Source of the DNA: a virus
Length of the DNA stretch: 64,000 nucleotides
Virus record (IMG/VR): IMGVR_UViG_3300044568_004391
Coordinates: 32,001 to 96,000 of that record
Strand: one strand, 5' to 3'
Shown: positions 5,836-52,630 of the stretch, in pieces
Position numbering within the stretch: the stretch's first letter is position 1
Layout: every line of letters starts with the position of its first letter
The notes under the pieces: generated by a model
Seen by the model: the letters and a program-made list of their open reading frames with translations, nothing else
The model's database searches: none
What the model was told of the DNA's origin: nothing
Made by a program: the position numbers and the translations under genes

Positions 5836-8415
5836 ATGCCCACAATCCCAATTTCCTCACTACCCAACTTTGATGAAAACAAGATAGGTACTTGGTTAGT
5901 TATTAATAACTCAGGTGAAACTGAAACCTTTAAAATTCGTAGAGAAGAATTTTTTACATTAAAATCCTATCTCAACGTTCAGGAAATGATTTCTGATCAG
6001 AATATAAATCTGAACGATTACACCGAAACTTATGGTTATTATTTACCCAATGATGGTGGTCAATTGGTTTATCTTATTAAAAATACTGGTACACCCGACG
6101 GTGGATCTGTAATTGAATTGGATAACGGACTATTCGCACATGCTCAATTACCATCTATCCTATCACCAATAATGTGGGGTGGGAAAGTCTTGGATAGTTC
6201 TACTTCTGCAGCAACAACTAACGTTTCTGCTGCTACTAATATGTTTGAATTCATTGCAACAGAAAATACAGCCACTCAAAGTAATGGTAAAAATAGTAGA
6301 AAAGTTAGATTCCCTCAAGGTAATTACTACGTCAACGGAACGATGGTGTTGCCTTCAAAGTTGGGTTCTGGGATCTATGATATTGATTTGAATGGTTGTA
6401 AAATTGTTGGTCTTTCAGCGGCTACGGATTACGCAATATTTCAAAGATTGAAAACCAATATGGATATTGAAACTTACGGATCTATACAAAATTCTTCAGG
6501 GGTTGAATATTTGAATGATAGGGTATTGATTTACAACGGAAATATATATGGACCAAATAGAAATTCAGGAACAATAGGGATTCAGATTCAATGTACCTAT
6601 ACTTCTTCGATTTCAAACATTAACTTTAGTAATTTAGGAACCGGATTGAGTCTTCAGTTTTGTTTGAATACTCAAATATATTCGAATATGTATACATCCT
6701 GTAATTATGGATCATATCTTAGTACTGGAGTTGGTTTTTGGAGTGGTGCAACATCTTCTAATAGTCAATGTAATGTTTCAACAATTAAACAAGATAGACA
6801 TTACTGTACTTATCCTTCACAGGCACCAATATTTATTGGAGGTTCGAGTGGAGTTTCTGTGATTGATTCAATAATAGAGGGTGGGGAAAGCGTCTATGGT
6901 ATTCATTTTAGTGGTATGAACTCAACTGTTGTTAAAGATTTCACAGTTGAAAGATTGCACTTAGAAGTTTCTGACTCAGGATCGAACCAAGGAATTACAG
7001 GTGCTGGAATATTCATTGATTCTCAAGCGGGCGGGGAGGTCAATATACATGGATTGTTTAGTCAATACTCTTACAGTACATTCAACAACGAAAAAAATGA
7101 TTATACAGGTACAACCAACGCAACACCTGGTACTTATATTTTGAGTCAAAGTGATGGTGATTTTACAACCAATGGATCTGGAACGAATTTAACATTTAAA
7201 GTTGTTGTTGGAGGAGGTGGAACAATAACCTCTTGGTCTTTGAGTGGTGATCCATTATCAAGCTCGGGATATAGTGCGGGTGATATTATAACAGTTCCAG
7301 CGGGTACATTCGGAGTGACATCAACTCAAGCTATATTCAAGGTAGATAGGAAAGATATTGATGAAAATGGTAGTATAAAGGCGGGTAATCCTGTTGTTGA
7401 TGCCTCAACATCGAACAGTTCTATGAGACTGAAGTTTCATAGTCTATATTGGCCAACCGGTACAAAAATAAAAGGACCCGTTAGTGATGGTATAGTTTTT
7501 TGGAATTTTGCAGGTTATATACCTGAACAAGTCGCCCAACAGGGTACAGGTTTGAGTAATACGGATTTGCAAGTGACTGATGAATATTGGGTTGCTTGGA
7601 AAAATGACAGTGGTGAGTATGCAGAAGAACAGTATTATAGAATATATTCTGACTCGGTAAATCAGGGTAAACTTGGATTGTCGACTGTTTCTTCATTATC
7701 AAGTTTCAATAGTGTAAATATCTTTCCTGATTTTAATAATCAAAATAAAAAAGCACTTTTTGGACCTAATTTCTTTGATTTCGGAGGAGTTGAATTTCGG
7801 TTTACAAACTCTAATTTGTTTACTGCATTTACAAATTCAGTGTCATTCAGGACAAATGGAGGTAATTTTGATATAACACCCACAGGTGGAGGAGATGTCA
7901 GACTTTTTGACAACGCATATAGATTACCAAAATTATCAGGTAAAACAAATACCACAATCATCAATGATGGATTAGGAACCACCTCATTCGGTTATTTAAG
8001 TGGTCAAATAATCAAAGAAACAATTCTCACGGCAACTACATCTCAATTACAAGAATTGACTGGATCTTTTGCCTTAGTGTCTAACGCTTCAATTACATTT
8101 ACCGCGACTAATACAACACATAAACTTTCGGTTCAAGCTCAAACCCTTAGTACTTCATCTAACAATGTATTTTTTGGTTTGAGTAATAATACGTCAAGTT
8201 ACACTACCTTAGGGGTAAAATATGAAAAATTGGTAAACGTTGCAACAGGACTTCAAAATAATAATGTTAAATGGGTGATTACTGATCTCGTAGTTGGGCA
8301 AAGTTATACGATTAACTTAGCTGGTAAGTTCACAGGTGGTGGTCAATCATATATTGTTTGGGGTGGTAATTCTTCGGGTGGTTATACTGATATAATTATA
8401 ACAATTGAACATTAA
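5836..8415 (+). CDS. Putative tail fibre/spike with pectate-lyase-like beta-helix
   Basis: 859 aa, Ser/Thr/Gly/Asn-rich; VRFPQGNYYV motif typical of beta-helix depolymerase N-termini; N-terminal PISSLP. Confidence 0.6.
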   Translation: MPTIPISSLPNFDENKIGTWLVINNSGETETFKIRREEFFTLKSYLNVQEMISDQNINLNDYTETYGYYLPNDGGQLVYLIKNTGTPDGGSVIELDNGLFAHAQLPSILSPIMWGGKVLDSSTSAATTNVSAATNMFEFIATENTATQSNGKNSRKVRFPQGNYYVNGTMVLPSKLGSGIYDIDLNGCKIVGLSAATDYAIFQRLKTNMDIETYGSIQNSSGVEYLNDRVLIYNGNIYGPNRNSGTIGIQIQCTYTSSISNINFSNLGTGLSLQFCLNTQIYSNMYTSCNYGSYLSTGVGFWSGATSSNSQCNVSTIKQDRHYCTYPSQAPIFIGGSSGVSVIDSIIEGGESVYGIHFSGMNSTVVKDFTVERLHLEVSDSGSNQGITGAGIFIDSQAGGEVNIHGLFSQYSYSTFNNEKNDYTGTTNATPGTYILSQSDGDFTTNGSGTNLTFKVVVGGGGTITSWSLSGDPLSSSGYSAGDIITVPAGTFGVTSTQAIFKVDRKDIDENGSIKAGNPVVDASTSNSSMRLKFHSLYWPTGTKIKGPVSDGIVFWNFAGYIPEQVAQQGTGLSNTDLQVTDEYWVAWKNDSGEYAEEQYYRIYSDSVNQGKLGLSTVSSLSSFNSVNIFPDFNNQNKKALFGPNFFDFGGVEFRFTNSNLFTAFTNSVSFRTNGGNFDITPTGGGDVRLFDNAYRLPKLSGKTNTTIINDGLGTTSFGYLSGQIIKETILTATTSQLQELTGSFALVSNASITFTATNTTHKLSVQAQTLSTSSNNVFFGLSNNTSSYTTLGVKYEKLVNVATGLQNNNVKWVITDLVVGQSYTINLAGKFTGGGQSYIVWGGNSSGGYTDIIITIEH

Positions 8416-9687: not shown

Positions 9688-11133
9688 ATGAAATTTGTTA
9701 AAATTTTAAAGCAACTCATTCTTGAGGCAAAAAACACAGAAGAACTATTAAACACTTATGCTTATGGTGAAAAAAAATCAGACAAAGGTAAGGTTAAAAG
9801 ATCTTTGATGACACCTGAGGAGTTGATGGTGATCATAGCTAATGACCCCACATCAAGGATTAAAGGTCTTCGACCAGAAAATGTTGTCAACCAATTATAT
9901 AACCCAACGATAAAAGATTCTCAAGATTATATTGATCTTGGTCTCGAAGCGGTTGAAAAACCTGGTGATTATACTGAATGGATCATCACACAGTTAAGGA
10001 AATTGGCGATCAAGGTGGACCAAGAGGTTCCATTCAAAGAAAACAGAGAAGCATTTGAAAGAGCCTATCAAAGGGCTAGACGTCTATTTTTTGAAGACCT
10101 ATTTAAAGTGAAACAGGATTTAATTAGATTTCATGCTAATAAAAAGACCGATAGGATTGAGAAAAAAGATATTAATCAATATGCTAACTTTGATGAATTG
10201 GAATCTGTTGTTGCATCACTACCACTAGAGACTGCAACAACAACAAGATCTGAAAGAAGAGAATCCAAAGTTCACCCTGGAGCTGAGATGGTTTTTGAAA
10301 GTCCAAATTGGGATATTATTAAAATTGAAAGACAAGACGAACTTGGAAGAGAGGCGGCTTGTTTCTATGGTGGAAATCAATTGAGAAAAGAAAGAGGAGA
10401 GACCAATTGGTGTACATCAGCACCAAATGCATCTGGACCTTTCAAAAATTACATCAGTAAAGGACCATTATTTGTTTTAATTCCAAAAGGTGGAAACACA
10501 ACGTTTGGCCCTAAAGATGTAGGAGATATTTCAGGTCTTCCTTCAAGAAGATATCAATTCCACTTTGAAGACAAACAATTTATGGATCCAGATGACAGTC
10601 AGATAGATTTGCTTGAATTTTTCGGACCGGGAGGAGAAATGGAAGAACTCAAAGAATTCTTCAGACCCTATTTTGGTAAAATATTCTTGAAGGGTGAAAA
10701 TACCAATAACAAAACTTTTAAATTGGAATATCCTTCAGGTGGAGCATCGAAGTATGCTGCAATTTATGGATTGGATACAATCATCGATTCTATTCCTGAT
10801 TCCATCACCACATTCGAAGTCATCAATAAAAGTAATACACCACTCGATCTAAAAATAGATGAAGATTTTGTGAAAAAATTCAGTAACTTAAAAGCACTTC
10901 ATTTACATAATGCGGTCTCATCACTCCCAAGTAATTTGGGTGATTTGAATCTTAAGTTCTTGGCAGTCACAAACTCAAAAAATATCGATGAAATCCCTCA
11001 ATCAGTTGACAGATTGGTTGAAGATGGAACTCTTACCTTAGCAAGTTTTGCCGGAAGCAATCCAAACTTGAAATTACCAGAAAAACTCCAAAAAGCTCTT
11101 GAAGATGGAGATATTATTGGTTATTTTGGATAA
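9688..11133 (+). CDS. Leader-bearing protein with KKDINQY/WCTS domain and C-terminal LRRs
   Basis: MKFVKILKQLILEA leader; KKDINQY; YGG...TNWCTSA; LKALHLHN...LPSNLGDL LRR-like region. Confidence 0.6.
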   Translation: MKFVKILKQLILEAKNTEELLNTYAYGEKKSDKGKVKRSLMTPEELMVIIANDPTSRIKGLRPENVVNQLYNPTIKDSQDYIDLGLEAVEKPGDYTEWIITQLRKLAIKVDQEVPFKENREAFERAYQRARRLFFEDLFKVKQDLIRFHANKKTDRIEKKDINQYANFDELESVVASLPLETATTTRSERRESKVHPGAEMVFESPNWDIIKIERQDELGREAACFYGGNQLRKERGETNWCTSAPNASGPFKNYISKGPLFVLIPKGGNTTFGPKDVGDISGLPSRRYQFHFEDKQFMDPDDSQIDLLEFFGPGGEMEELKEFFRPYFGKIFLKGENTNNKTFKLEYPSGGASKYAAIYGLDTIIDSIPDSITTFEVINKSNTPLDLKIDEDFVKKFSNLKALHLHNAVSSLPSNLGDLNLKFLAVTNSKNIDEIPQSVDRLVEDGTLTLASFAGSNPNLKLPEKLQKALEDGDIIGYFG

Positions 11134-11427: not shown

Positions 11428-12996
11428 ATGAAAAACTACGAGTCATTCTATTTCAAGAGTCTTGGGAACACATGTGCTTTGGAAAAAATTGAAAAGGACG
11501 AATTCTATACTCTATTCAAAGAACCTCTCCTTTTGACTAAGGTTTCTTTAAGTTGGGAGATCATTGATAATGATGATATGGTCAAACTGAAGATGTCCAT
11601 CTTCAACGAAAACAAAAGAATTGAGAGTGTATATTTTAGGAAAGAGATAAAAACTTTGGTTTTTATTTTTAAGAAAAAGACAGGTCTTTTCTATTTTGGT
11701 GAATATACAAAACCATTTAGAAAAAAGAAGATGGTCGGAACTATCAAAACTTTTCCTCAGGTATGTATGACTGACAAATTTATTGGTCAACTGAGGGTTC
11801 TTTTCAAGATGTTACAATCTTCCGATTGGAAGAAGTCTCAATTTGTGAAAGATTATGTTGTAGAATACAGAGGTATTTTGGAAGAATACCAAAACAAAGT
11901 ATTAGACTTCATTGGATACCCAAGAGAAAAGATGAGATTAACGGATTTCGTATTTCTTCTAAAACTTAGAAAGTATGATGTTAAGATTCCAAATAATTGG
12001 ACAACATTTGTTTATATGTACTTACATAAAAAAAATGTAAAATTGAACAATTATAATTTGGTTGATTGTTTCCTGATGAGAAACGATAAAATAGGAAATA
12101 TATATACCAAAAAATATAAAAAGTTTTTCAATACTGCTGACATTACTCCTTTAGATGCGATAAATATAGTCGGCAACCTTAGAATTCTGAAAAGTTTGGT
12201 CGGTCCGGATTATTTTAAAGAATATGATTTGAATGATTTAAAAGAAAATTTGCATGGTTTTTCGTTTTTTAGTAGTCAGTTCATTCAACACATAACAAAT
12301 CAGGATAGATTGAATATACATAGATATATCTTGAAGTCTTTAGAGGTTGGAAATCGTAATTTACTCTCTTTACATGATCACTTGGGTTATATTCATGAAT
12401 TACACGAAAGAATAGGCACAAGTCCAAGATTTGTATTTAAATCATTGGAGGAATTTGAGAATGAACACTATGAATTATCCAATATGGTTCATAAAATGAG
12501 AAATGGGTATATGGTTAGAAATTATGACCCTAAATTTGAAAAACTGTTTTATGATAGTTTTGATGGGTTTGAAGTTAAGTTATTGAAAAATTCAGATGAA
12601 TACGTTGAAGAATCAAACCATCAAAGAAACTGTGTAAAAACATACACAAAAGACAAAGATTGTTTCATTCTTTCCCTCAGAGATAGTGATAATAAAAGGA
12701 TTACTATTGAATATGAAAAAAGTTATAATGGGGTTATACGTAAACAAACTTACGGATTCGCAAATTCACAGGTGGATTTGAATATCTACGGAAAGGCATT
12801 ATCTACGTTGGATACAACAATAGAAAAGTATTTCAAAAAAACAGATGACTTCCAATATGAAATGATCACCAAAACAATAATAAACGAATTTTACCAATAT
12901 ACACATCCCCAAAAAATATCTTGGAAAAATTTGGAAAGGAAGGATTCTTATAGTATCTTTGAAGAAGAAAATTTCAACTTTACAACTAATTTTTAA
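11428..12996 (+). CDS. PcfJ-like domain protein
   Basis: C-terminal EESNHQRNCVKTY...ILSLR...ITIE...Q.YG..N pattern. Confidence 0.7.
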   Translation: MKNYESFYFKSLGNTCALEKIEKDEFYTLFKEPLLLTKVSLSWEIIDNDDMVKLKMSIFNENKRIESVYFRKEIKTLVFIFKKKTGLFYFGEYTKPFRKKKMVGTIKTFPQVCMTDKFIGQLRVLFKMLQSSDWKKSQFVKDYVVEYRGILEEYQNKVLDFIGYPREKMRLTDFVFLLKLRKYDVKIPNNWTTFVYMYLHKKNVKLNNYNLVDCFLMRNDKIGNIYTKKYKKFFNTADITPLDAINIVGNLRILKSLVGPDYFKEYDLNDLKENLHGFSFFSSQFIQHITNQDRLNIHRYILKSLEVGNRNLLSLHDHLGYIHELHERIGTSPRFVFKSLEEFENEHYELSNMVHKMRNGYMVRNYDPKFEKLFYDSFDGFEVKLLKNSDEYVEESNHQRNCVKTYTKDKDCFILSLRDSDNKRITIEYEKSYNGVIRKQTYGFANSQVDLNIYGKALSTLDTTIEKYFKKTDDFQYEMITKTIINEFYQYTHPQKISWKNLERKDSYSIFEEENFNFTTNF

Positions 12997-15243: not shown

Positions 15244-16770
15244 ATGAAATTTTATGATTTTTTGATACTAGAGAATGAGAAATTTAAACAAAAGTTTGAT
15301 TCGGGAAGGTATCGTAAAATAGAGAGTATTGCTCAAAGATCTTTAGATCAAAATGATATAATTGAATTTTTGGGTGAAAATTTAGATTCACTATACGGTG
15401 ATGAACAGTTATTTGAATTGAAGGATTTGATTGTCAATTTCAAACAAGTAAAAGAATTTTTGGATAAGAAGTCTTTGAAGGAGTATAGTTCTTCAGAAGA
15501 ATTGAAACAAGCATTGAATAATTTAAAGAAAGATATGTTAAATTTGAATACATCTGCTGATGTAATTAAAGTTTACGAAGATGAAAATTATGTTTTGGTT
15601 TATCCTGAAAACTTTACCTCCGCTAAATTATATGGGGGTCTGATCAATAATCCATATTCTGTTTCCAAAGATGAAATTAAGTATTTGAAAGAAAAATTAT
15701 ATGGTGTCACTTTCTATTTAATACCCAAAAATGGTAGTGAATTTACTTACAAAATAACATATAAATTTGGAGATGAGTTTATGATATTCGACAAGGGGGG
15801 TACAAGAATCGGAATAAATCGAATTGATAGATCTATTTTACAAAAATGTAGAGACTTTGTTTACGAAAAATTCAAAAAAATAGTTAATATCTTTGAAGAT
15901 GATTATTTGAAAGAAAAATATATTGCTCTTAATTTGGAAGGTATTGAACAAAAAGCTAAACAAAATCAAGACAAACTTAGACAAGAGGACGCCTGGTTTG
16001 GAACCGATATTGGAAACAGAGCAAAGGCGGCTTTCGAATATTCTAAGGATTATCGTAATGCTGGTTTTGAAGAATTACGTGATATTTACGACTTATATTG
16101 GGACGGTTATGCTGAGTTCAGTACAGAACCTGAAGGGGAGGGTGTGGTCTTCAGAGTTTTAAACCAAGAAGAAGCGGACAACGAATCACAACAATATTGG
16201 GAAAGTTATGTTGATGATGTTGATCCGACAGAGGCATTTAGTCGAAGTTATTTAAATCATTTTCTCGATGAAGAAAAAATCAAAGAATATTTTTGGTCAC
16301 TTATGGAGGACCAAATCAAAGATGATCTCGAATCGTATTTCGAAGTTGAAGAATTACCCATCAATTCATACGACCAAAGAAAAATTGATAGGTTAAAAAG
16401 TGAAAAAGATTCCCTTCAACAGGAAATAGATAATGAAGAGATGAGTGATGAGGACATTAAAAGTCATCAAGAAAGAATAGATGAAATTGATTTGGAAATT
16501 GAAGAGATAGAAGAAAATGCTGAAAGGGAACCAACCAGTAATCAGATCGAAGAAAAAATCGATGAAGAATGGTATGATGTATCAAGGGGAAGTTTGATCG
16601 ATTGGATTGAGGATATAGGGTTGGATTTAGGGGATTTTCTAGATACTGAAGCGTTAATCAAAAATTTAATAAGTGACGGTGAATATGGTTCATCATTATC
16701 TACATATGATGGTGATTACAACTATTATAATATGGACGGAAAGGATTATTATGCTTTTAGAATTTCATGA
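15244..16770 (+). CDS. Acidic leader-bearing protein with coiled coil
   Basis: MKFYDFLILE leader; N-half resembles 9688 and 16767; TATTTATA at 15223. Confidence 0.6.
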   Translation: MKFYDFLILENEKFKQKFDSGRYRKIESIAQRSLDQNDIIEFLGENLDSLYGDEQLFELKDLIVNFKQVKEFLDKKSLKEYSSSEELKQALNNLKKDMLNLNTSADVIKVYEDENYVLVYPENFTSAKLYGGLINNPYSVSKDEIKYLKEKLYGVTFYLIPKNGSEFTYKITYKFGDEFMIFDKGGTRIGINRIDRSILQKCRDFVYEKFKKIVNIFEDDYLKEKYIALNLEGIEQKAKQNQDKLRQEDAWFGTDIGNRAKAAFEYSKDYRNAGFEELRDIYDLYWDGYAEFSTEPEGEGVVFRVLNQEEADNESQQYWESYVDDVDPTEAFSRSYLNHFLDEEKIKEYFWSLMEDQIKDDLESYFEVEELPINSYDQRKIDRLKSEKDSLQQEIDNEEMSDEDIKSHQERIDEIDLEIEEIEENAEREPTSNQIEEKIDEEWYDVSRGSLIDWIEDIGLDLGDFLDTEALIKNLISDGEYGSSLSTYDGDYNYYNMDGKDYYAFRIS

Positions 16771-23384: not shown

Positions 23385-23428
23385 AAAGTTTTGTTTTAGG
23401 ACAAAACTTAATTATCTTTGTAATCATG
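23385..23428 (+). repeat. Palindromic promoter/operator repeat, copy A
   Basis: 39/44 identical to 25861-25904; contains AAGTTTTGT...ACAAAACTT inverted repeat and TATCTTTG. Confidence 0.8.
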
Positions 23429-24904
23429 GGAACTCAAGAACTCTATAAGTCAGTCAACGAGAAAGACGTTGAAAATCTCTATCGTCACACCTTGATGAAG
23501 AAATTCAAGGATATGGAGATCACATCACCTTTTGGGTGTGACGGATTTGCAGTATCCAAACAACATAAGATCCGTACTCTTCTTGAGTTCAAAGATGACT
23601 TGAACTTGAATTCGAAATTGGAACAGTCCAAAGTTTTGGCTCAGGCAATCTACTACGTCAAAAAGTTTTACGATAAGGGTCAAATTCCTCCTTCCACAAT
23701 CTTTGTTGGTGATCGTAATGAATGTTTGGCTCTTCACGTCAACAGTCTTTTGAAATACCTTGAGATGGATTTGGATTGGTCGATTGCACCATCTTCCGCT
23801 CACAAAAATGTGGAACTGATTTCCATGTTGATGGATGACCAAGAAGTTTGTCCATTTGTATTCAACTCAGATCACTTCGAACAGTGTATCGACAAGATCA
23901 AAGACCTTACGGATAACATTCAACGTAAAGTAATTGTAACCGATAAAAATATCACTGAGGTCTTTCGTTATTTTGAGGAAAAGATCCTGACCAAAACTTG
24001 TAAACTCTCAACCAACGAGAAGGCAAACCTCTTTGTTCAGCTCTTAGTGAACAACGTAGACAACTATCTCCATCCGTTCGATAAAAGGAAGATGGTTGTA
24101 ACCAAGAGTTTCGGTGAGATTCCTATCGTGTCTCGTGAATCCTTTGTTTCTTTCTTTTCTCACTTTGCGTCTTCGTACTCTCCATCTCAAAAACATAAAT
24201 TGACCGCTGTGGTTGACCGAATTGTTGAGGATGTAACTCGTCGTAAACAAGGTGAGTTCTTCACACCGGCAATTTGGGTTGACAAAGCTCACGAGTACAT
24301 CGCTTCTGTATATGGTGACGATTGGAAAGAAAAGTATGTCGTTTGGGATCCTGCATGGGGAACAGGTAATCTGACCCGTGACTATAAGTTTAAGGAACTG
24401 TACGCTTCAACCTTGAATCAATCTGACATCGATACTGCTAATCAGATGGGGTACAATCCTGAAGCGATGAAGTTTCAGTACGATTTCTTGAATGATGACT
24501 ACGAAAAACTTCCTAAAGGACTTAGGGTTGCTATTGAGGAAGGTCGTCAAATCATTGTGTTGATGAATCCGCCTTATGGTCGAGCATCGAATGGTCGTAT
24601 TGCCGATGGTTCATCGAGAACGGGTATTGCTATGACGAGTTTGCGTGATGAAATGTTGAACGAAGATTATGGTAAATCTGTTCAACAACTTTACACACAA
24701 TTCATGTATAAGTGTAAAAAATATGGTATGAATATTTGTATGTTCTCAAAACCTAATTTCGCAACTGCACCATCATTTGATAAATTTAGAAAAAACTTTA
24801 TGTTAGAGTATGACTTTAGTGGTGGTTTTGTAATGGACGCTTCTGAATTCGCTGACGTAAAATCTTGGCCTTTAACCTTTACTATTTTATCGTTTAAGAA
24901 ATAA
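23426..24904 (+). CDS. Type IIG/I-like nuclease-methyltransferase, N-terminal part
   Basis: N-terminal D...LEFK nuclease-like motif; GEFFTP, DPAWGTG and NPPY gamma-class N6A MTase motifs. Confidence 0.8.
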   Translation: MGTQELYKSVNEKDVENLYRHTLMKKFKDMEITSPFGCDGFAVSKQHKIRTLLEFKDDLNLNSKLEQSKVLAQAIYYVKKFYDKGQIPPSTIFVGDRNECLALHVNSLLKYLEMDLDWSIAPSSAHKNVELISMLMDDQEVCPFVFNSDHFEQCIDKIKDLTDNIQRKVIVTDKNITEVFRYFEEKILTKTCKLSTNEKANLFVQLLVNNVDNYLHPFDKRKMVVTKSFGEIPIVSRESFVSFFSHFASSYSPSQKHKLTAVVDRIVEDVTRRKQGEFFTPAIWVDKAHEYIASVYGDDWKEKYVVWDPAWGTGNLTRDYKFKELYASTLNQSDIDTANQMGYNPEAMKFQYDFLNDDYEKLPKGLRVAIEEGRQIIVLMNPPYGRASNGRIADGSSRTGIAMTSLRDEMLNEDYGKSVQQLYTQFMYKCKKYGMNICMFSKPNFATAPSFDKFRKNFMLEYDFSGGFVMDASEFADVKSWPLTFTILSFKK

Positions 24905-29980: not shown

Positions 29981-30877
29981 ATGAATGAATATATTAATCA
30001 AATAGTTTGTGACAACAGCGTTCATTTTATGAGAAATATAATGAATGAGAATTCGATTGATCTTATTATTACCAGTCCACCATACGGCGTTGGTATTGAT
30101 TATGACAGTTGGGATGATGATGAGGAGTTTGAGGATTACAAAAACTTTTCAAGGGAATGGTTGACCGAGGCTTACAGGGTTTTAAAATCTGATGGTAGAA
30201 TTTGTTTGAATATCCCATATGAAATCAATAGACAGAAGAAGGGTGGAAGGATCTTTTTCGCCTCTGAGATTTGGCAGATTATGAAGGAGATCGGATTTGG
30301 TTTCTTTGGTATTGTGGATTTGGAGGAGAGTTCACCACATAGAAGTAAAACTACTGCGTGGGGATCTTGGATGAGTCCTTCAGCTCCTTATATCTATAAC
30401 CCAAAAGAGTGTGTCATCTTGGCATATAAGAACTTATCCAAGAAACAGGTTAAGGGTACACCTGAGTGGCAGGGTGAATATCAGAGGGTTCCAAGTGAAA
30501 AGATTGAGGGTGAGTTCAGAAATAAGTTGGTTTATGATGAGAAGGACAAGAAGGATTTTATGGAACTTGTATTTGGTCAATGGAATTATTTTGCCGATAC
30601 AAGATCTTTGACCAAGGCGACCTTCAGTTTGGATATTCCTTGGAAAGCAATTAAGATCTTGTCATATAAAGAAGATATTATCTTTGATCCATTTAATGGT
30701 AGTGGAACCACGTGTTTGGCGGCGGAGAAACTCGGAAGAAAATGGATTGGATGTGAAATCAGTGAAAACTATTGTGAGGTGGCAAGAAAAAGAATTAAAG
30801 AATATCAGGCAGAAAGAAGCGCTGCCAAAACCTTATTTTGTGATGAAATTAAAACTGGAAGATTTTTGGACATATGA
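29981..30877 (+). CDS. Beta-class DNA methyltransferase (probably N4-cytosine)
   Basis: TSPPY and DPFNGSGTT. Confidence 0.9.
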   Translation: MNEYINQIVCDNSVHFMRNIMNENSIDLIITSPPYGVGIDYDSWDDDEEFEDYKNFSREWLTEAYRVLKSDGRICLNIPYEINRQKKGGRIFFASEIWQIMKEIGFGFFGIVDLEESSPHRSKTTAWGSWMSPSAPYIYNPKECVILAYKNLSKKQVKGTPEWQGEYQRVPSEKIEGEFRNKLVYDEKDKKDFMELVFGQWNYFADTRSLTKATFSLDIPWKAIKILSYKEDIIFDPFNGSGTTCLAAEKLGRKWIGCEISENYCEVARKRIKEYQAERSAAKTLFCDEIKTGRFLDI

Positions 30878-32355
30878 TAAAGAGATATAATTATTACAAC
30901 GAAGATCTGTATCGGATCGCAATTGACGAAGGGGTAAAGACCACTTCACAAGGGATTCTTTATTTCCCCACCGGCAAGTTCACGGGACGATCTCCCAAAG
31001 ACAGATATTTCTGTGATGGAGAATATGTTGATAAGGTGATAGACAAATCAAGGGAAATCAACCAAATCATATCAAGGGAAACTTATTCTAAACTCAAGAA
31101 TTCTTTGGAAGAACATATCAAGAATTCACCTGTGGAATATAAAACTTCAAGGGTAGTTTGTTATCATAAGAAGTTTCATACTTTGGTTGACCTTCATACC
31201 ACCCATGCATGGGCGAACATATTCTTCAATAATATGACCATCAATGCGACGGGGATACAAGCGGAAGGTGGAGGATTTTTTACCAAGTGGAAGGTTCTTC
31301 ACGGACCGGAGTTTGTTCCCCAAGAAACATACGAAGATCTTAAAAACCCAAACTTTGTCATCATAGATTTTGAGGATAAAACCATCATTATCGGTGGAAC
31401 CAGTTATACCGGTGAGATAAAGAAAAGCATCTTTACCGTTTTAAATACTATCTTTATTGATCACGGAGTTCTTCCGATGCATTGTTCGGCAAATGCAAAC
31501 TCCAAAAATGGAAAAGGGGTTAATCTATTTTTTGGTTTATCGGGAACAGGGAAGACAACTTTATCTTCGGATCCAAATAAGTTTTTTATCGGAGACGATG
31601 AACACGGATGGTTTGAAGATCATATCTTCAACTTCGAGGGAGGATGTTACGCAAAACTTATTAACCTCAAGAAAGAAAACGAACCAATCATTTGGGACTC
31701 CATTCATTCTCCTGATAGATTCAATCATACCAACTGTTCTTTGATGGAGAATATCGTCGTGGACGATGAGAATAACCCCGACTTTTCGGATTCATCAATT
31801 ACGGAGAATATCAGAGCATCATATTCATTGGGACAACTTCCTGAAGAGTTTATGGTAGATGATTTAGGGCTTGGAAAGAATGTCAAAAATATCTTCTTCT
31901 TATCTTTTGATGCTTTTGGTGTCTTACCTCCGATTTCAAAACTTGATTTGGATGACGCAGCAAGATTCTTCAAGATGGGATATACTTCCAAAGTGGCGGG
32001 AACGGAGGTGGGTGTGACCGAACCAACGGTGGTCTTTTCTACTTGTTTCGGTTCACCTTTCTTACCAAGAAAAGTGGAAGATTATGTGGATTTATTCAAG
32101 GAGAAAGTCCGAAAGTCGGGGTGTAATGTATGGTTGGTGAATACAGGGTTTGATGAAAATCTCAAAAGATATCCGATTGATATAACACGAAAAGTTATTA
32201 ATGGTGTGATCGACGGGAAGTATTCAGAGAAAACATTTGATTATCACGGACTCAAAATTCCCAACAGGATATTGGATCTTGATTTGATCACTCTCAAACC
32301 TGATATTGAAGAAGAAAGGATTGAGAAATTATTTGAACTTTTGGATCAACATTGA
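30874..32355 (+). CDS. pckA: Phosphoenolpyruvate carboxykinase (ATP)
   Basis: TGRSPKD, YTGEIKK, MHCSAN, GLSGTGKTTLS, IGDDEHGW, NFEGGCYAK. Confidence 0.95.
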   Translation: MIKRYNYYNEDLYRIAIDEGVKTTSQGILYFPTGKFTGRSPKDRYFCDGEYVDKVIDKSREINQIISRETYSKLKNSLEEHIKNSPVEYKTSRVVCYHKKFHTLVDLHTTHAWANIFFNNMTINATGIQAEGGGFFTKWKVLHGPEFVPQETYEDLKNPNFVIIDFEDKTIIIGGTSYTGEIKKSIFTVLNTIFIDHGVLPMHCSANANSKNGKGVNLFFGLSGTGKTTLSSDPNKFFIGDDEHGWFEDHIFNFEGGCYAKLINLKKENEPIIWDSIHSPDRFNHTNCSLMENIVVDDENNPDFSDSSITENIRASYSLGQLPEEFMVDDLGLGKNVKNIFFLSFDAFGVLPPISKLDLDDAARFFKMGYTSKVAGTEVGVTEPTVVFSTCFGSPFLPRKVEDYVDLFKEKVRKSGCNVWLVNTGFDENLKRYPIDITRKVINGVIDGKYSEKTFDYHGLKIPNRILDLDLITLKPDIEEERIEKLFELLDQH

Positions 32356-36906: not shown

Positions 36907-37215
36907 ATGAAGACGATAAGTAAAGAAACTCTCAATAAAGTATGGATCATCACCAAGAGAATCATCAACTATATCTTTCTTTTGATCGTTCTCGGAACAG
37001 GATTTTACATCGGAAAAACCTATGTGGAATATATCCCTGAAGAGAAAAACAACCAACCCGTCACTTTGGATAATGTATCCATCGCCGTTGACGAGAAGAA
37101 CCATATATTTATAATAGATAAACATACAGGAGAATACCAAGTATTTTCCGACTCCGTTGGTATCACAATCTTCAAGATGTATGCCGGTAAAATCTATAAC
37201 TCACAACCGAAGTAA
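36907..37215 (+). CDS. Single-pass membrane protein
   Basis: TM segment; coupled to the SLT gene. Confidence 0.65.
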   Translation: MKTISKETLNKVWIITKRIINYIFLLIVLGTGFYIGKTYVEYIPEEKNNQPVTLDNVSIAVDEKNHIFIIDKHTGEYQVFSDSVGITIFKMYAGKIYNSQPK

Positions 37216-37736
37216 TGTATAAAGTAAAATTCGTCACCGTCACCATCATATTTTTTATCGCTTATGTGATATACCAAAATCAATCACAACAAGAAGATAT
37301 AACCCCAACCTATGTGGAGACGGGAACGGTTTTACCTACCAATGAACCCCCCTGTATTCAGATGTATTATTATATAGAACAATATTCCAAACAATACAAT
37401 ATACCAAGAAAATATGCATATGGAATTGCTTACAAAGAAACTGGATACAGGGGACCCTTTCATTGGAAATACAATCACAAACAAGTGAGTTTCGCAGGTG
37501 CGATGGGTCCGATGCAGATCATGCCCTCCACTGCAAAAAGTGTAAACGGATATTATGTATCCAACGAAAAACTTACCTCCGATATTAAATTCAATGTCGA
37601 AACTTCGATGAAGTTGTTACAAAAGTTGAAAAACAAATATGGGAGTTGGGAAGTTGCATTTGGTGTTTATAACACCGGCCGTCCGATGGTAAATCAGTAT
37701 GCTATGGACGTTTATCGGTTTGAACCGAATTGGTAA
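37215..37736 (+). CDS. Lytic transglycosylase (SLT domain) with N-terminal TM/signal
   Basis: AYKET, AGAMGPMQIMPSTA, YNTG. Confidence 0.87.
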   Translation: MYKVKFVTVTIIFFIAYVIYQNQSQQEDITPTYVETGTVLPTNEPPCIQMYYYIEQYSKQYNIPRKYAYGIAYKETGYRGPFHWKYNHKQVSFAGAMGPMQIMPSTAKSVNGYYVSNEKLTSDIKFNVETSMKLLQKLKNKYGSWEVAFGVYNTGRPMVNQYAMDVYRFEPNW

Positions 37737-37769
37737 TTTAATCAGAAACAATAATTTTTTTAAAAACAT

Positions 37770-38813
37770 ATGAAAGTAAAATTGGAATACATTTGGTTGG
37801 ATGGTTATGAACCAGAACCAAACCTAAGAAGTAAAGTCAAAGTTGTTGATGCAAAGAGACAGCAAGGAGTTGATCGAGATGTTTTTGGTATTGAACTTAA
37901 AGATTGTCCTGAATGGTCTTTTGATGGATCTTCCACCAATCAAGCGGAAGGTCACTTCTCTGATTGTGTCCTTAAACCTGTTTCCCTTTATCCTAATCCA
38001 CTAAACAAAGGAGTTATACCATCCTACTTTGTGATGTGTGAAGTTTATCTTCCTGATGGAACCCCTCATCCTTCAAATACGAGATCATCTATTGAAACAG
38101 AGGATGAAGATCTTTGGTTCGGTTTTGAACAAGAATATACTCTTGTAAAGGACGGAAGACCTTTGGGTTTCCCAAACAATGGTTATCCCGCTCCACAAGG
38201 AAAATACTACTGTGGTGTAGGTAATGGACAGGTCAACGGAAGAACTTTTGTTGATGAGCATTTGGAGATGTGTGTATACGCAGGGATTGATATTACAGGA
38301 ACCAACGCTGAGGTGATGCTCGGACAATGGGAATATCAGGTCTTCAGTAAGGGGAAGAAAAAAGCAGGTGATGATCTTTGGATCACACGATATATTTTGG
38401 AACAGATGTCCGAGAACTACGGATTTAAAATTGAATTCCACCCCAAACCTGTTCAAGGTGATTGGAATGGATCGGGACTTCACTGTAACTTCTCAAACAA
38501 GAGGATGAGAGAAAATGGTAGTAAGGAATATTTTGAGGGAATCTTCAAACAATTTGAGGATAGACACTGGTTACATATTGAAAACTATGGATCAGACAAC
38601 AACCTTCGTTTGACAGGAAAACACGAAACACAACATATCTCCAAATTCAGTTGGGGTGTATCAAATCGTGGAGCGTCAATCAGAGTTCCATTGAATACTA
38701 CACATAATAATTGGGCGAGTGGGTATTTGGAAGATCGTAGACCTGCTTCTCACGCTGATCCATATAAGATTGTGAAAGTAATTTCAGATTCTTTGGATTT
38801 AGTTGAAGTTTGA
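37770..38813 (+). CDS. glnA: Glutamine synthetase, type II
   Basis: EYIWLDG, WSFDGSST, FGFEQEY, NAEVMLGQWEYQ, DWNGSGLH, RLTGKHET, NRGASIRVP, YLEDRRP. Confidence 0.94.
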   Translation: MKVKLEYIWLDGYEPEPNLRSKVKVVDAKRQQGVDRDVFGIELKDCPEWSFDGSSTNQAEGHFSDCVLKPVSLYPNPLNKGVIPSYFVMCEVYLPDGTPHPSNTRSSIETEDEDLWFGFEQEYTLVKDGRPLGFPNNGYPAPQGKYYCGVGNGQVNGRTFVDEHLEMCVYAGIDITGTNAEVMLGQWEYQVFSKGKKKAGDDLWITRYILEQMSENYGFKIEFHPKPVQGDWNGSGLHCNFSNKRMRENGSKEYFEGIFKQFEDRHWLHIENYGSDNNLRLTGKHETQHISKFSWGVSNRGASIRVPLNTTHNNWASGYLEDRRPASHADPYKIVKVISDSLDLVEV

Positions 38814-38815
38814 GC

Positions 38816-38957
38816 TTGACAAACCGAAAAAAAGTTCATACATTTGTAATCCAAACCGAACGAGGTTAGGGTTTTTTCACGAAAACGATATATTTATATA
38901 TCACAGAAAAAAATAGGGGATTTCACTTGACAAAACGAAAATTAAGTTGTAGTTTTG
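38816..38957 (+). promoter_or_regulatory. Three stacked promoters upstream of the large ncRNA
   Basis: TTG(38816)-N20-TACATTTG(38839); TATTTAT(38891); TTG(38927)-N20-TAGTTTTG(38950). Confidence 0.65.
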
Positions 38958-38962
38958 TCCTC

Positions 38963-39750
38963 TGAAATTAGAGTTCTTTGATTAAAACCTTTTATTGATG
39001 GTTTAAACGGTTGGCGGCTTAGCGTCGTTAGATAACCCCGGCGACGGGAATAAAGGGTCGGAATTCAGATCTAGCAATCTGATTATATGACCGCAGAACA
39101 TTAGGTGTTCTGACAACTAAGCAAATTACCTACGATAGAAACCCTAAGGGCAACTGCTAAGGGGGTTCTATTATCCTGAGTCCGTGGAATATCAGGGTTG
39201 AGGTGGTGACACCAATAGGAAAAGGTAAAGATGACGGTTCGAAACAACCTGCCAGTTGTTTGAGGGCTGAGCATCAGTCTGAGGGGCATCCGATGGAAAA
39301 TTAATCCGACGTTGTCCTGAAAGGCCGTGAGTGGGCAGACTCACAGAGAGTAGTGTGGTATTCCGTGTTCAAAAGATATGGAGTCACACCGACAGCGCTA
39401 CTTTCCATTTCCACATTTGCTAATTTAATACTTAAATTAAGCAAAAGTCTGTCGGCGTTGTAAACGAAAGGTGTCTAAAACTTCAGACCGTGAGGTCAAT
39501 GAAGTCTCAGATAAGACCGCAAGTCTTTCTGAGTTGATTGTGAAAGTTCTAGTAGGTCGGCCAACCTTTAGTGAGTGAAAACTCAATAGAAACGAGTATT
39601 AGTCGAGTGGTTTACAACGATACGAGTGGTTACCGATAGTAACCGACACTGATCTGATATCACGGGCAATCGTGATGGACAAGTTGGCAACCTGTCGTGG
39701 GGTACACCAACGAAAGACAGATCACTCAAGCGTGTAGTCTCAGCGCAAAC
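38963..39750 (+). ncRNA. Large (~790 nt) highly structured ncRNA, GOLLD-like candidate
   Basis: GC-richer, no credible ORF, many hairpins with GNRA-type loops, long-range pairs (39456-65/39610-19; 39346-55/39396-405), pseudoknot 39389-95/39449-55, own promoters and terminator. The GOLLD label rests on size and phage context only. Confidence 0.75.
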
Positions 39751-39765
39751 TTAAAGAATCCCCTT

Positions 39766-39796
39766 ACCTTAACCGTAGTTGGTTAAGGTTTTTTTT
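39766..39796 (+). terminator. Intrinsic terminator of the large ncRNA
   Basis: ACCTTAACC-GTAGTT-GGTTAAGGT-T7. Confidence 0.85.
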
Positions 39797-39857
39797 GCCC
39801 TATTGACTCAAAACAAAAAAAGTTGTATATTTATTTATAGTTAATACATTTTATGAA

Positions 39858-40019
39858 ATGAATAATTTAACTGACGAAGATGAAGACCTCTCCTACATTT
39901 GGGGTGGTGGTAAGAAAATTAAAAAACCCAAGAAAAATCAAAAACCGACTGATGGATTTTGGGAAGATGAGTATTACGAATCGGATCAGAAGAAAGGAAG
40001 AGGTAAAAAAAAGTTTTGA
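39858..40019 (+). CDS. Small charged protein (53 aa, not in ORF track)
   Basis: MNNLTDEDEDLSYIWGGGKK...; TATTTAT at 39828. Confidence 0.5.
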   Translation: MNNLTDEDEDLSYIWGGGKKIKKPKKNQKPTDGFWEDEYYESDQKKGRGKKKF

Positions 40020-40062
40020 AGTTTGAGTAAAATAGCTTATCTTTGTATCAAACGAAGATAAG

Positions 40063-40329
40063 ATGACTCAAAAACAAATCTCCATCCTCCATCCTAAACA
40101 CGGATCAATCTTGAGTGAGTCGTTTGTTGACGATGTTCAATTCAAACTTTTCCTCAAGTCCGTCAACGGATGTTTGTCCTTGAAACGAGATCTGACGTTC
40201 TACGATGGTAACCACTTCCTCATACACATCCCGTATGTTGTATTGAAGTCTTCAATCGTTACAACAAAAGTTGAGACAATCACACCTGGAAAGGTTTTGA
40301 TTGAATCGGCTTTGGAAAAGAGCCACTGA
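40063..40329 (+). CDS. Hypothetical protein
   Basis: 88 aa; TTTG-N19-TATCTTTG promoter at 40015-40045. Confidence 0.7.
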   Translation: MTQKQISILHPKHGSILSESFVDDVQFKLFLKSVNGCLSLKRDLTFYDGNHFLIHIPYVVLKSSIVTTKVETITPGKVLIESALEKSH

Positions 40330-40364
40330 GCGTAGGACCAAGGTGGAGTGCCTTAATCGGCCCT

Positions 40365-40390
40365 AAAGTCCAGAGAAATCTGGACTTTTT
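40365..40390 (+). terminator. Intrinsic terminator
   Basis: AAAGTCCAGA-GAAA-TCTGGACTTT-TT. Confidence 0.8.
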
Positions 40391-40426
40391 CTTTTTATGA
40401 TATATTTATAGTCAAATGATTTAAAA

Positions 40427-40738
40427 ATGGCAAAATTCGTTATTACCCAAAAACAACTTGACTATATAGTTGAAAATGTTAAAAAAGATAAGTTGAATGA
40501 AGATTCAGATGGTAGTTATATGGCGAAACAACAATTGTTTGTAATTGCTACTATGGCTTATAAGATGTGGGAGATGTTGGACGACAACGCACAACTTGAG
40601 GATTGGATGGAAAGTAAAATCGCTCAGTGTGAACAAAGTGTAAGTTCTGTAGTTAAGGCTTATTTGTATGACGAATTTGATGCCGAATTAAAGGGAATGG
40701 ACACCTTGAGTTATGATGATTTGGTGATAGGACAATAA
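40427..40738 (+). CDS. Leader-bearing hypothetical protein
   Basis: FVITQKQLDYIVE...LNED leader; YMAKQQL...LEDWMESKI. Confidence 0.65.
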   Translation: MAKFVITQKQLDYIVENVKKDKLNEDSDGSYMAKQQLFVIATMAYKMWEMLDDNAQLEDWMESKIAQCEQSVSSVVKAYLYDEFDAELKGMDTLSYDDLVIGQ

Positions 40739-40844
40739 TCAAAAGATTTAGAAAGAAATCGACCTCAAACGGTCGATTTTTTTTTGTTTAAACATTTGAT
40801 AAGATCCTAATATTTGAGTATAATTAGAAGTAATTTATAAATTA

Positions 40845-41861
40845 ATGATTAATTTCGCAGACATTATTGTTGATCTTCAGGCGGGTGACACAGGTAAAGG
40901 GAAAGTGGCTCATGCACTTGCAAAAACAAACGACTACACACATGTTATTAGGTATAACGGAGGTGGTAATGCGGGTCACACCGTTTACCATGACGGAGAA
41001 AAAGTAGTAACCCATTTCATACCAGTTGGGGTTCTTTATAACATCCCTTCCATTATTGGACCAGGATGTGTCGTTGATCCAATCAAATTGGAGATGGAAC
41101 TCGATGATTTAACAAAGGTAAATCCAAGAGTTAGAGAATTTCTTTTTATTGATCGTGGAGTCCATATTATAACAGAACAACACAAAGAAGAGGATGGTAA
41201 AGATTTCAAAATCGGAACAACTAAAACAGGAAATGGTCCGGCTTATGTGGATAAGTACAATAGAAGTGGAATCAGATATGAAAATTATGTGACAATCAAC
41301 AATCCTTCCAACAACTACCTTTGTGATATTTATGACATTTTATTTTCTCAAGAGGATGTTAAAATTCTTTTCGAAGGTGCTCAGGGTTTTGAGTTGGATA
41401 TTGATTGGGGTGATTATCCGTTTGTCACATCTTCTCATTGTACGGCGGGTAGTGCTTGTTTGAATGGTGTATCACCCAAATACATCAGAGACATTTATGG
41501 TATTTCAAAAGCATATGTTACTTATGTAGGTGCAAAAGAATTTGAGGGTGGTCTTGATATTTTTCAGAAAATCAGAGAAGTTGGAAATGAATATGGGGCA
41601 ACTACAGGAAGACCAAGACAAGTTAATTGGTTGAATTTAGATAATTTAATCAAAGGATCCAACATCAACGGTGTTACGAAATTAATTATTAATAAAATTG
41701 ATGTATTGGAAAAAATAAACTACTATTGTTTGATTTATTTAGGTGAGGAAATTATTTTTGACAAAAAATTAGAATTCAAAAATTTTATTCACCAAACACT
41801 TATTGAAAAGTGTCCTCTAATTCAAGAAGTAATTTTTAGCTATACACCTTACGAGATATGA
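40845..41861 (+). CDS. purA: Adenylosuccinate synthetase (compact form)
   Basis: QAGDTGKGK, GGGNAGHT, IGTTKTGNGPAY, FEGAQG, YPFVTSS, EYGATTGRPR. Confidence 0.93.
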   Translation: MINFADIIVDLQAGDTGKGKVAHALAKTNDYTHVIRYNGGGNAGHTVYHDGEKVVTHFIPVGVLYNIPSIIGPGCVVDPIKLEMELDDLTKVNPRVREFLFIDRGVHIITEQHKEEDGKDFKIGTTKTGNGPAYVDKYNRSGIRYENYVTINNPSNNYLCDIYDILFSQEDVKILFEGAQGFELDIDWGDYPFVTSSHCTAGSACLNGVSPKYIRDIYGISKAYVTYVGAKEFEGGLDIFQKIREVGNEYGATTGRPRQVNWLNLDNLIKGSNINGVTKLIINKIDVLEKINYYCLIYLGEEIIFDKKLEFKNFIHQTLIEKCPLIQEVIFSYTPYEI

Positions 41862-42043
41862 AATGGAATTTAGTGATCAACCAGTTTAACAGATCCGACG
41901 AGGAATTTTACCTACTTCCCTGGATCAAGTTTTTCAACATTATGAATTTTCAAACTGAGGAGGGATATGAATCTCCTTTGGTAGGATTTGAATTTGGTCT
42001 TTTCAAATTTTATTATACCTTTGCAATTCAGAAGACCTATTAG
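41858..42043 (+). CDS. Small hypothetical protein
   Basis: 61 aa, coupled to purA. Confidence 0.5.
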   Translation: MKWNLVINQFNRSDEEFYLLPWIKFFNIMNFQTEEGYESPLVGFEFGLFKFYYTFAIQKTY

Positions 42044-51508: not shown

Positions 51509-52630
51509 TTATTTTACACAAGTTTGTCCTATACCTGTTAAGAAAATTAAAAAGTCCTGTGAACTAACAAATCCATCGGCATCGAGATCACACTTATAAC
51601 ATTGACCACTTTCTGTGGTGGTTCCGTGACAACTCAAATAGATAAGAAAATCTTGTGAGGTGACTAAACCATCATTATCCAAATCCAATAAACAATTTAA
51701 AGAAAGAGTTTTGAATACATCTTTCCTGTTTTGGTTTACATAACTATGCATTCTGTTGATCTGACCATTGGTAAAACTGCGCCGACAATTATTGGCAAGG
51801 TAATCCATATGATTATCTTGGACATAACCAAACCAGGGATCAGATTCCAAAATGATCACATTACAACCTGGCGTGCAGTCGGGGACAAAGTTAGATCTTT
51901 GAAATGGTGGGGTGTCACAAACAAGATCTCCTGTCGTTCCGCAATCCAATCCATAATTTTCACAAGAGAACGCACCATTAAAGGTATGAAACAAACCAAG
52001 ATAATGACCGACCTCATGGACAAGAGTTGCGTTTCTGTGATATGAAGATGGGTTCAAAGAGAAGGTGGAAGTTCTAATCCAGATCCCGTCAGGTGGTTTG
52101 GGTGCGGGATTGATGATGGTTGCTCCGAAGGGTGGGATAAACGAAAAACCAAGAGAATTATATACTTTGGGTTGAATAAAGATATTGAGAGTTGTGTTGG
52201 GATTTACACTCATGGTATTACCAATTTCAAATAGTTTTGAAGAACCTGGCGGATACATAGCGGGAAGTTTGCTACTATTCATAGGTTCGGTCATATATTC
52301 TTGATACCAAGAGAAATCTTTCAGAGGTTTCCGATTGATTGAAACAAGAACAAATCTAAATTTTGCTTTATTGAATTTAATATTCAAATCATTTAGAGCA
52401 ACCAACAAGGTGGAGTCAGAAACATTCAACAACTGATCGTCATAGAGGACATGGAAGACGATGGGGATTTCTTTGTATGTAATCGGATCGGAGGATTTAT
52501 TGGATAGTCTAGCAGATTTACGAGACAAAGAAGAGAAATCTTTTTTGGAGGTTTGAGTTCCACATTCTTCTTGAGAGAAAGATCCAAATGATATAAAAGA
52601 CAAAAGTATTAATAAGATATAGTTTTTCAT
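51509..52630 (-). CDS. Secreted M43 zinc metalloprotease with dockerin-like domain
   Basis: Signal peptide, CGT cysteine switch, IPIVFHV, HEVGHYLGLFHTF, GDLVCDTPP, NHMDY; DLDNDG/DLDADG repeats. Confidence 0.87.
   Translation of the reverse strand: MKNYILLILLSFISFGSFSQEECGTQTSKKDFSSLSRKSARLSNKSSDPITYKEIPIVFHVLYDDQLLNVSDSTLLVALNDLNIKFNKAKFRFVLVSINRKPLKDFSWYQEYMTEPMNSSKLPAMYPPGSSKLFEIGNTMSVNPNTTLNIFIQPKVYNSLGFSFIPPFGATIINPAPKPPDGIWIRTSTFSLNPSSYHRNATLVHEVGHYLGLFHTFNGAFSCENYGLDCGTTGDLVCDTPPFQRSNFVPDCTPGCNVIILESDPWFGYVQDNHMDYLANNCRRSFTNGQINRMHSYVNQNRKDVFKTLSLNCLLDLDNDGLVTSQDFLIYLSCHGTTTESGQCYKCDLDADGFVSSQDFLIFLTGIGQTCVK

Follow-up and report, generated by a model that had tools for sequence, protein, structure and literature searches.

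A stand-alone GOLLD gene in a large lake phage, probably encoding a self-assembling cage RNA

GOLLD RNAs are among the largest non-coding RNAs of bacteria and phages, and they form RNA-only cages that are larger than the ribosome. In the GOLLD of Lactobacillus brevis, expression rises during phage lysis. Among the closest described systems is the GOLLD env-38 (833 nt), for which cryogenic electron microscopy revealed a closed D7 14-mer cage without protein, with the 5' domains as its caps, the 3' domains as its rings, and the linker in its interior (Kretsch et al. 2025, PMC12286853; PDB 9MEE). The 700-nt GOLLD of Streptococcus agalactiae, likewise solved by cryogenic electron microscopy, is a dodecamer, and its 3' domain alone is mainly a decamer (review PMC12990946). 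Differences in helices set the stoichiometry of GOLLD, with 10, 12, or 14 subunits among the solved forms (PMC12990946). The DNA analyzed here, a stretch of 64,000 nt referred to as the window, corresponds to bases 32001-96000 of the 151,984-bp IMG/VR record IMGVR_UViG_3300044568_004391 (a record coordinate minus 32000 gives the window coordinate), and its region ~38960-39797 is the GOLLD gene of a large lake phage. The best explanation overall, held with high confidence, is a stand-alone GOLLD gene with its own promoter or promoters, leader, and terminator, whose product is probably a self-assembling cage RNA.

When the entire window was searched with Rfam 15, the only match was to GOLLD (RF02032) at 39346-39746 on the + strand, which is also the strand of the parts of the gene described below. 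The match scored 263.9 bits (gathering score, 150), with an expectation value (E) of 4.7e-74, and it covered model positions 1-416 of 416. An Rfam cmscan of 38700-39900 at E<=1 likewise returned GOLLD only, with no match to ROOL, OLE, or the group I/II introns, the other models that the original prediction had proposed for comparison. That prediction had allowed for either a GOLLD relative or a new class; the element is GOLLD proper, a genuine and typical member of a family already known, and a new class is excluded. The RF02032 model represents only the universally conserved 3' domain of GOLLD, which is why the match was limited to the second half of the predicted interval. Only one GOLLD copy was found in the virus record.

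The conserved RNA core spans 734 nt (39013-39746). It is composed of a 5' domain of 333 nt (39013-39345), which has 18 helices in our own numbering and is conserved in 21 further IMG/VR RNAs, and the Rfam-covered 3' domain (39346-39746). The folding energy of the core was -240.5 kcal/mol, with a z of -5.0 relative to dinucleotide shuffles. The GC content of the block was 0.42-0.47, compared to 0.31-0.39 in its flanks and 0.34 genome-wide, and no + strand open reading frame (ORF) of at least 40 amino acids (aa) was found in 38814-39857. The GC, ORF, terminator, and fold data therefore bear out the earlier description of a GC-richer, ORF-free block of hairpins between glnA and a terminator.

Full-length relatives of the window RNA, with coverage of 39013-39746, were identified in IMG/VR by pattern scanning and then by BLAST and nhmmer. 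After the removal of identical copies, the set included 22 distinct RNAs of 734-759 nt, namely that of the window and 21 others, all of which were on viral contigs. Their identity to the window RNA ranged from 66% to 99.6%: two relatives were at ~99.5%, two at 88-90%, and the rest at 66-71%. The first pattern scan (AAGCAAAAGTCT-N14-16-GAAAG) returned 41 loci, including 26 outside this clade; among the latter, only L015 and L024 were GOLLD by Rfam, L013 was cut by the end of its locus, and the rest were attributed to chance. A blastn search of the region against 50,697 GenBank phage records gave no match. An exact-match search for the 5' motif of the clade in 185,579 genomes of bacteria and archaea was also negative, and no prophage copy or host was named thereby.

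An RNAalifold consensus of the alignment, designated A1, included 192 pairs, 86 of which had compensatory changes. The structure used for counting was this consensus plus two pseudoknots and minus five pairs. Three of the dropped pairs were at the 5' end (1:487, 2:486, and 3:484), where none was compensatory and one clashed with the first pseudoknot, and the other two (672:693 and 673:692) were invariant and clashed with the second pseudoknot. Across the 22 RNAs, 99.0% of the pair cells were paired, compared to 86.9% in shuffles and 36-44% when the partners were slid. Similarly, 90 of 199 pairs had changed on both sides, compared to 14-18 when slid. The conserved structure in homologs on which the original prediction depended was thereby recovered. 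Of the 18 helices in the 5' domain, 16 had compensatory changes, which identifies the upstream half as a domain with conserved structure rather than a spacer. In the 3' domain, helices 19-35 of A1 were 96-100% paired, and most of them had changes on both sides.

Most of the individual helices proposed in the original prediction were present in both the Rfam alignment and the covariation-supported consensus. These included the hairpins CAGAACA/TGTTCTG, GACC-GTGA-GGTC, GGTTAC/GTAACC, and ATCACG/CGTGAT, the hairpin AAGAC-CGCAA-GTCTT within CTCAGA/TCTGAG, and the long-range helix P17 (helix 23) between CGTTGTAAAC (39456-39465) and GTTTACAACG (39610-39619), which was compensatory in four of its ten pairs. 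The proposed pseudoknot (helix 22) between the bulge CCGACAG (39389-39395) and CTGTCGG (39449-39455) was 100% paired in the 22 RNAs and compensatory in four of its seven pairs, where relatives carried the variants CCUGAAG/CUUCAGG, CUCGAAG/CUUCGAG, and CCCGAAG/CUUCGGG. This pseudoknot is real and already published rather than new, as its equivalent is listed by Kretsch et al. among the covarying pairs of env-38 (467-471 with 555-559; PMC12286853). The proposed helix of GAGTGGT at 39624 with ATCACTC at 39721 did not hold: it had no compensatory change, its second pair was broken in 18 of the 22 RNAs, and it overlaps helix 32, which itself covaries. A GUGUC/GACAC pairing (39471-39475 with 39645-39649, helix 24), the counterpart of 576-580 with 743-747 in env-38, was 100% paired, and it varied on one side only (G-C to G-U in two of the 22 RNAs) without compensatory change in the clade.

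The variable A/U-rich linker J13/15 (39407-39438) is unaligned and length-variable in both the Rfam alignment and A1. It is 32 nt long in the window RNA and up to ~30 nt longer in relatives, and no tRNA was found by ARAGORN inside the linker at 39407-39438. Outside the clade, the more distant GOLLD of L015 (6954-7394 on the - strand, 226 bits) has a tRNA-Gln inside its linker, and in the truncated L013 (11491-11596 on the + strand) a tRNA-Pro lies immediately before the post-linker motif.

The 5' motif of env-38, GTTGAG-N10-CAATAAGAATAAC, was used to fish IMG/VR viral contigs, and it was found in more than 120 of them at least, several of which were 150-480 kb in length. The 3'-domain profile of the clade matched 69 of the 80 motif loci that were fetched (L140-L219), in most cases ~210 nt past the motif, and GOLLD is therefore common in large uncultured phages. 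In the 59 loci used to build a profile, the 3'-domain match was on the strand of the motif and began 207-230 nt downstream. The resulting profile of 50 env-38-type 5' domains aligned collinearly to nt 1-209 of the core, starting from its first base, with 9.3 bits and an E of 1.2e-3 for the window and an E down to 2.5e-6 in the clade, as calculated on a small target set. The blocks in common, which occur in the same order, were GGCNG..TA..GTCGTTA.ATAA, a GNRA hairpin, ATAAAG, GAGGGNAAC, and then GTTGAG..ACCAATA.GAA, the last of which shares positions with the motif by which the profile members had been retrieved. The distal 125 nt of the 5' domain had no alignment with the profile. By our own assessment, the first 209 nt are probably homologous to the env-38-type 5' domain, and the distal 125 nt appear to be clade-specific and shorter.

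The contacts between env-38 subunits (bridges B1, B4, B6, B7, B8, B9, and B10) were mapped onto the window RNA by position and motif, and env-38 was compared through short motifs by eye and the profile of IMG/VR relatives. The printed env-38 sequence and its numbering differ by 1-3 nt, which made the mapping of exact residues unreliable. A GNRA loop near the 5' end (39043-39046) corresponds to the donor motif of bridge B1. The loops CUGCC (39249-39253) and GGCAG (39334-39338) are complementary to each other and are located at the positions of env-38 residues 251-257 and 409-415, respectively, of the intermolecular bridge B4. This loop-loop pair was paired in 94.5% of the cells, and two of its five pairs were compensatory. 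The A-rich loop L14, UUCAAAAG (39368-39375), fits the Rfam consensus; in env-38, the A-run supplies the A-minor donor of bridge B6. In the loop L20, CGCAA (39518-39522), the GC can pair with the GC at 39441-39442 as an analogue of bridge B7; in env-38 this bridge pairs UC with GA, whereas the window RNA pairs GC with GC, a compensatory difference. The loop L21a, CGGCCA (39558-39563), contains the palindrome GGCC and carries GGCC, UGCA, or CG in relatives; in env-38, this loop forms bridge B8 by self-kissing. The P21b hairpin (39572-39585) has a deviant L21b loop, GAAAA, which belongs to a subclade without the CG/GC dinucleotide, and L21b loops of the UCGCAAG or CCCGAAG type were found in 17 of the 22 RNAs. 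Additionally, a GCAA loop is present at 39668-39671 in the equivalent of P24.

Besides the Rfam family and the helices of the 3' domain, the window RNA and env-38 have in common the bulge-to-linker-flank pseudoknot, the GUGUC/GACAC pairing, the L14 A-run, the pairing of L20 with the linker flank, the palindromic L21a, the GNRA loop near the 5' end, the loop pair at the B4 position, and the order of the 5' blocks. The two differ in the length of the core (734 nt in the window and 833 nt in env-38), in the distal 5' domain between the B4-like loops, which is ~70 nt shorter in the window RNA, in the 32-nt linker, and in L21b, where GAAAA is without the GC used for self-kissing in env-38. They also differ in origin, as env-38 comes from a marine metagenome and the window RNA from freshwater, and env-38 is located downstream of a tRNA-Met, like four relatives of the clade, whereas the window RNA has no adjacent tRNA. 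The S. agalactiae GOLLD (PDB 9L0R, PMC12990946), compared by description only, is similar in size and has a reduced 5' domain, and it demonstrates that shorter GOLLDs still close cages (PMC12990946). However, it is without P21b, whereas the window RNA keeps that hairpin, and the two are far apart in host and sequence. ROOL is likewise a large phage-associated RNA that often occurs near tRNAs and forms RNA-only cages (octameric), but it is unrelated to the window RNA in sequence and secondary structure, in line with the lack of a ROOL match at E<=1.

By homology with the two GOLLDs solved by cryogenic electron microscopy, and because the GNRA loop, the L14 A-run, the GC of L20 and the linker flank, the palindromic L21a, and the covarying B4-like pair are all retained, the window RNA most likely forms an RNA-only cage of 12-14 subunits. 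In the proposed mechanism, the RNA would fold without protein and assemble with its own copies into a closed dihedral cage of 12-14 subunits, where the 5' domains would serve as caps, the 3' domains would serve as rings, and the linker would point inward.

The RNA is flanked by the elements of a transcription unit. The promoter-like site P1 (38816-38846; TTGACA, a spacing of 17 nt, and TACATTTG) is kept in the close relatives L040, L035, L049, and L031. A second, proximal promoter-like site, P2 (38927-38957), consists of TTGACA at 38927-38932 and TAGTTTTG at 38950-38957, with a putative start site. A TAnnTTTG box was found upstream of the RNA in 16 of the 22 clade members. The leader hairpin CTCT-GAAATT-AGAG (38960-38973), read from the sequence, occurs at the same place with other sequences in most relatives and is absent in L044 and L057. 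It is followed by the leader box GTTCTTTGA (38973-38981), which is conserved in the clade: a GTTCTTT box, whose next two letters are GA, AA, or TA, is located 20-104 nt before the core in all 22 members, and a scripted count found the leader box in 19 of the 21 relatives, where L045 and L047 have GTTCTTTAT. Downstream of the core is a hairpin with a T run that resembles an intrinsic terminator (39766-39797, stem 39766-39789). All 21 relatives have a counterpart at the same place, which differs in sequence and is in each case followed by a T run. The order in all 22 members was a promoter-like site, the leader hairpin (except for L044 and L057), the box, a spacer, a core starting with GGCGG, ~20 nt, and the terminator. 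The prediction of a stand-alone transcription unit is supported by the promoter-like sites, the conserved leader, and the terminator in all relatives, as well as by RNA-library contigs that cover the RNA. The leaders of L011, L032, and L046 contain a long hairpin with an inserted stem-loop of ~25-30 nt (e.g., ACGGA..TCCGT around a TTCAAATC-like loop), which was not called a tRNA by ARAGORN. A potential 5'-3' closing helix between the leader box GUUCUUUGA and the 3' tail UUAAAGAAU (39753-39761) is perfect in the window but absent in relatives, and it was rejected as a chance match.

The RNA was also found in environmental RNA libraries, where six metatranscriptomic runs contained 64-77% of the sampled words. 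Contigs of four runs, which came from four studies of freshwater or rivers, were compared with 37000-42000. They covered 38926-39761 in X17, 38870-39224 and 39195-39742 in X18, 38972-39516 and 39518-39744 in X16, and 38972-40277 in X15. The contig starts at 38870 and 38926 precede the proximal promoter, and the former makes it probable that some molecules are initiated upstream of 38963. The starts at 38972 in X15 and X16 were rejected as a 5' end, as they are located one base past a position that is polymorphic in X17 and X18 (G>A at 38971) and were attributed to assembly breaks. In the riverine libraries, the ends of two contigs, at 39744 and 39742, are directly followed by Illumina adapter sequence. 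This weakly suggests that a natural 3' end coincides with the border of the conserved core, ~22 nt short of the terminator stem; both riverine studies possibly belong to a single campaign. The flanking intervals 37000-38836 and 40507-42000 were without RNA-contig cover except for one divergent low-depth piece, a difference that carries no evidential weight. Several short contigs, from all four RNA libraries, matched only 39176-39237 of the 5' domain and then diverged, and other GOLLD variants with this core were evidently present in the same RNA samples. RNA-library contigs also covered two small ORFs of 53 and 88 aa (39858-40329, + strand) that are located behind a promoter-like site at 39803, and one contig over these ORFs ends at 40361, followed by adapter letters.

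Several observations weigh against the interpretation as a stand-alone gene for a cage-forming RNA. Assembled contigs cannot show strand, level, timing, or true ends, and the X15 contig passes the terminator into the downstream genes, where termination may be leaky. The 5' domain is ~90 nt shorter than that of env-38, and only its first 209 nt align, weakly (9.3 bits). L21b is without the self-complementary CG/GC (the B9 contact of env-38) found in relatives, so that one cage contact may have been lost through the deviant loop. Additionally, the gene has no adjacent tRNA, unlike many GOLLDs. Some of these points would fit an RNA with a GOLLD sequence that acts as a monomer or a small protein-bound oligomer, for instance by decoying host nucleases or ribosomes or by providing a scaffold for them, with cage assembly being a property of some family members only. 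The solved GOLLDs already differ, with 10, 12, or 14 subunits depending on the helices present, the window RNA combines a shortened distal 5' domain with the deviant L21b loop, and ribosome pull-downs with GOLLD have been cited by Kretsch et al. (PMC12286853). Nevertheless, this alternative is considered unlikely, as most contact motifs are kept, and L21a and the loop-loop pair vary in a self-complementary or mutually complementary manner, as expected of RNA-RNA bridges.

The span of the X15 contig (38972-40277) across the terminator could also indicate a long structured 5' leader acting as a cis-regulator of the downstream small genes (39858-40329). This is very improbable, given that a terminator follows the core in all 22 RNAs although their downstream sequences differ, that a separate promoter-like site is present at 39803-39831, that a contig over two genes does not establish a single transcript, and that the family matched in Rfam consists of free-standing RNAs. 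Finally, the size and ornate fold of the RNA, with a 5' half outside the Rfam model, would be compatible with a new large RNA class or a self-splicing intron that only resembles GOLLD. With a full-length GOLLD match far over the threshold, such a reading is counted as already refuted. Within 38700-39900, ROOL, OLE, and the group I/II introns gave no match at E<=1, and this, together with the ordered blocks in common with env-38-type GOLLD 5' domains, leaves it next to no probability. A stand-alone GOLLD gene with a probable cage RNA thus remains the preferred reading.

In agreement with the original prediction that no tRNA flanks the RNA, none was found in the 64-kb window. The record contains 13 tRNA genes, all of which are located at 127-152 kb on the opposite strand and more than 55 kb from GOLLD. 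Among the 22 distinct RNAs of the clade, four have a tRNA-Met upstream, within ~100 nt in L003, L023, and L027 and at ~730 nt in L011. Besides its site at 38973 in the window, the leader box GTTCTTTGA occurs on the minus strand of the record, outside the window, at 150269, 148390, 140936, and 146607. It is found 26 nt upstream of tRNA-Leu and 31 nt upstream of tRNA-Met, in each case 3-4 nt after a TAnnTTTG-like box. It also precedes an unannotated stretch at a distance of 168 nt upstream of tRNA-Thr, and it occurs directly after tRNA-Pro. In the relatives L003 and L027, the box is present a second time, upstream of the tRNA-Met gene that precedes GOLLD. These occurrences suggest that GTTCTTTGA may mark a promoter class that stable RNAs have in common, or a signal for their processing. 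On the basis of the box that GOLLD and tRNA genes have in common, and of the relatives located directly behind tRNA-Met, a role of GOLLD linked to translation or tRNA is a speculative best guess that is more probably wrong than right. It is possible, and put forward tentatively, that the compact freshwater subclade forms a cage whose stoichiometry or closure is unlike that of the env-38 14-mer and that its GOLLD belongs to a phage tRNA regulon though unlinked. The different cage is proposed because ~70 nt are missing between the B4-like loops and the self-complementary dinucleotide of L21b is absent, and the regulon membership is proposed because the GTTCTTTGA box is common to GOLLD, to tRNA-Leu and tRNA-Met, and to the tRNA-Met of the relatives L003 and L027.

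With a completeness of ~52%, as estimated by CheckV, for a record of 152 kb, the phage is probably very large. The stretch was present in many lake-water metagenomes. The genes upstream of GOLLD encode an SLT lysozyme and then a GlnA-like protein of 347 aa (37770-38813, + strand) with the Pfam domains Gln-synt_N and Gln-synt_C. Of the ten large ORFs tested, eight had no PHROG family at E<=1e-5 (934-2130, 5836-8415, 9688-11133, 11428-12996, 15244-16770, 23426-24904, 30874-32355, and 51509-52630), and the PHROG matches obtained were to a Y-family polymerase and a thymidylate synthase. The phage is poorly related to described phages. Along with the viral origin of the record, the SLT lysozyme, the thymidylate synthase, and the 13 tRNA genes show that GOLLD is phage-encoded here, as is characteristic of the family. 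The Y-family polymerase has scattered phage relatives and names no host. A short homologue of adenylosuccinate synthetase (338 aa), putatively PurA-like, is encoded at 40845-41861 (+ strand). Its nearest cellular relatives were metagenome-assembled genomes of Patescibacteria at 47-57% identity and a mix of others, which name no host either, and its phage matches include Arthrobacter and Vibrio phage groups. These groups include carriers of the PurA-like enzyme PurZ, which is associated with 2-aminoadenine DNA.

The TAnnTTTG boxes before GOLLD and some of the tRNA genes hint at a Bacteroidota host, which remains a guess. Genome-wide, TAnnTTTG upstream of ORFs showed no orientation bias (22 versus 21 of 174). 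A search for the C-terminal sorting domain of the type IX secretion system (T9SS) gave a sub-threshold match to TIGR04183 (17.4 bits, with a cut-off of 23), which lies in the last part of a 706-aa frame (record 121557-121712, + strand, outside the window), and the Pfam model had no match. Hence, the idea of a Bacteroidota host is unsupported by both the genome-wide motif statistics and the T9SS searches.

The locus establishes no new principle; it provides a clean and well-bounded stand-alone GOLLD gene with a promoter, leader, and terminator and without an embedded or adjacent tRNA, which is present in natural freshwater RNA libraries. Its 21 distinct relatives extend strong covariation across the 5' domain, beyond the Rfam model. 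The GTTCTTTGA box in common with tRNA genes and the natural variation of the contact loops offer testable handles on the regulation of GOLLD and on the stoichiometry of its cage.

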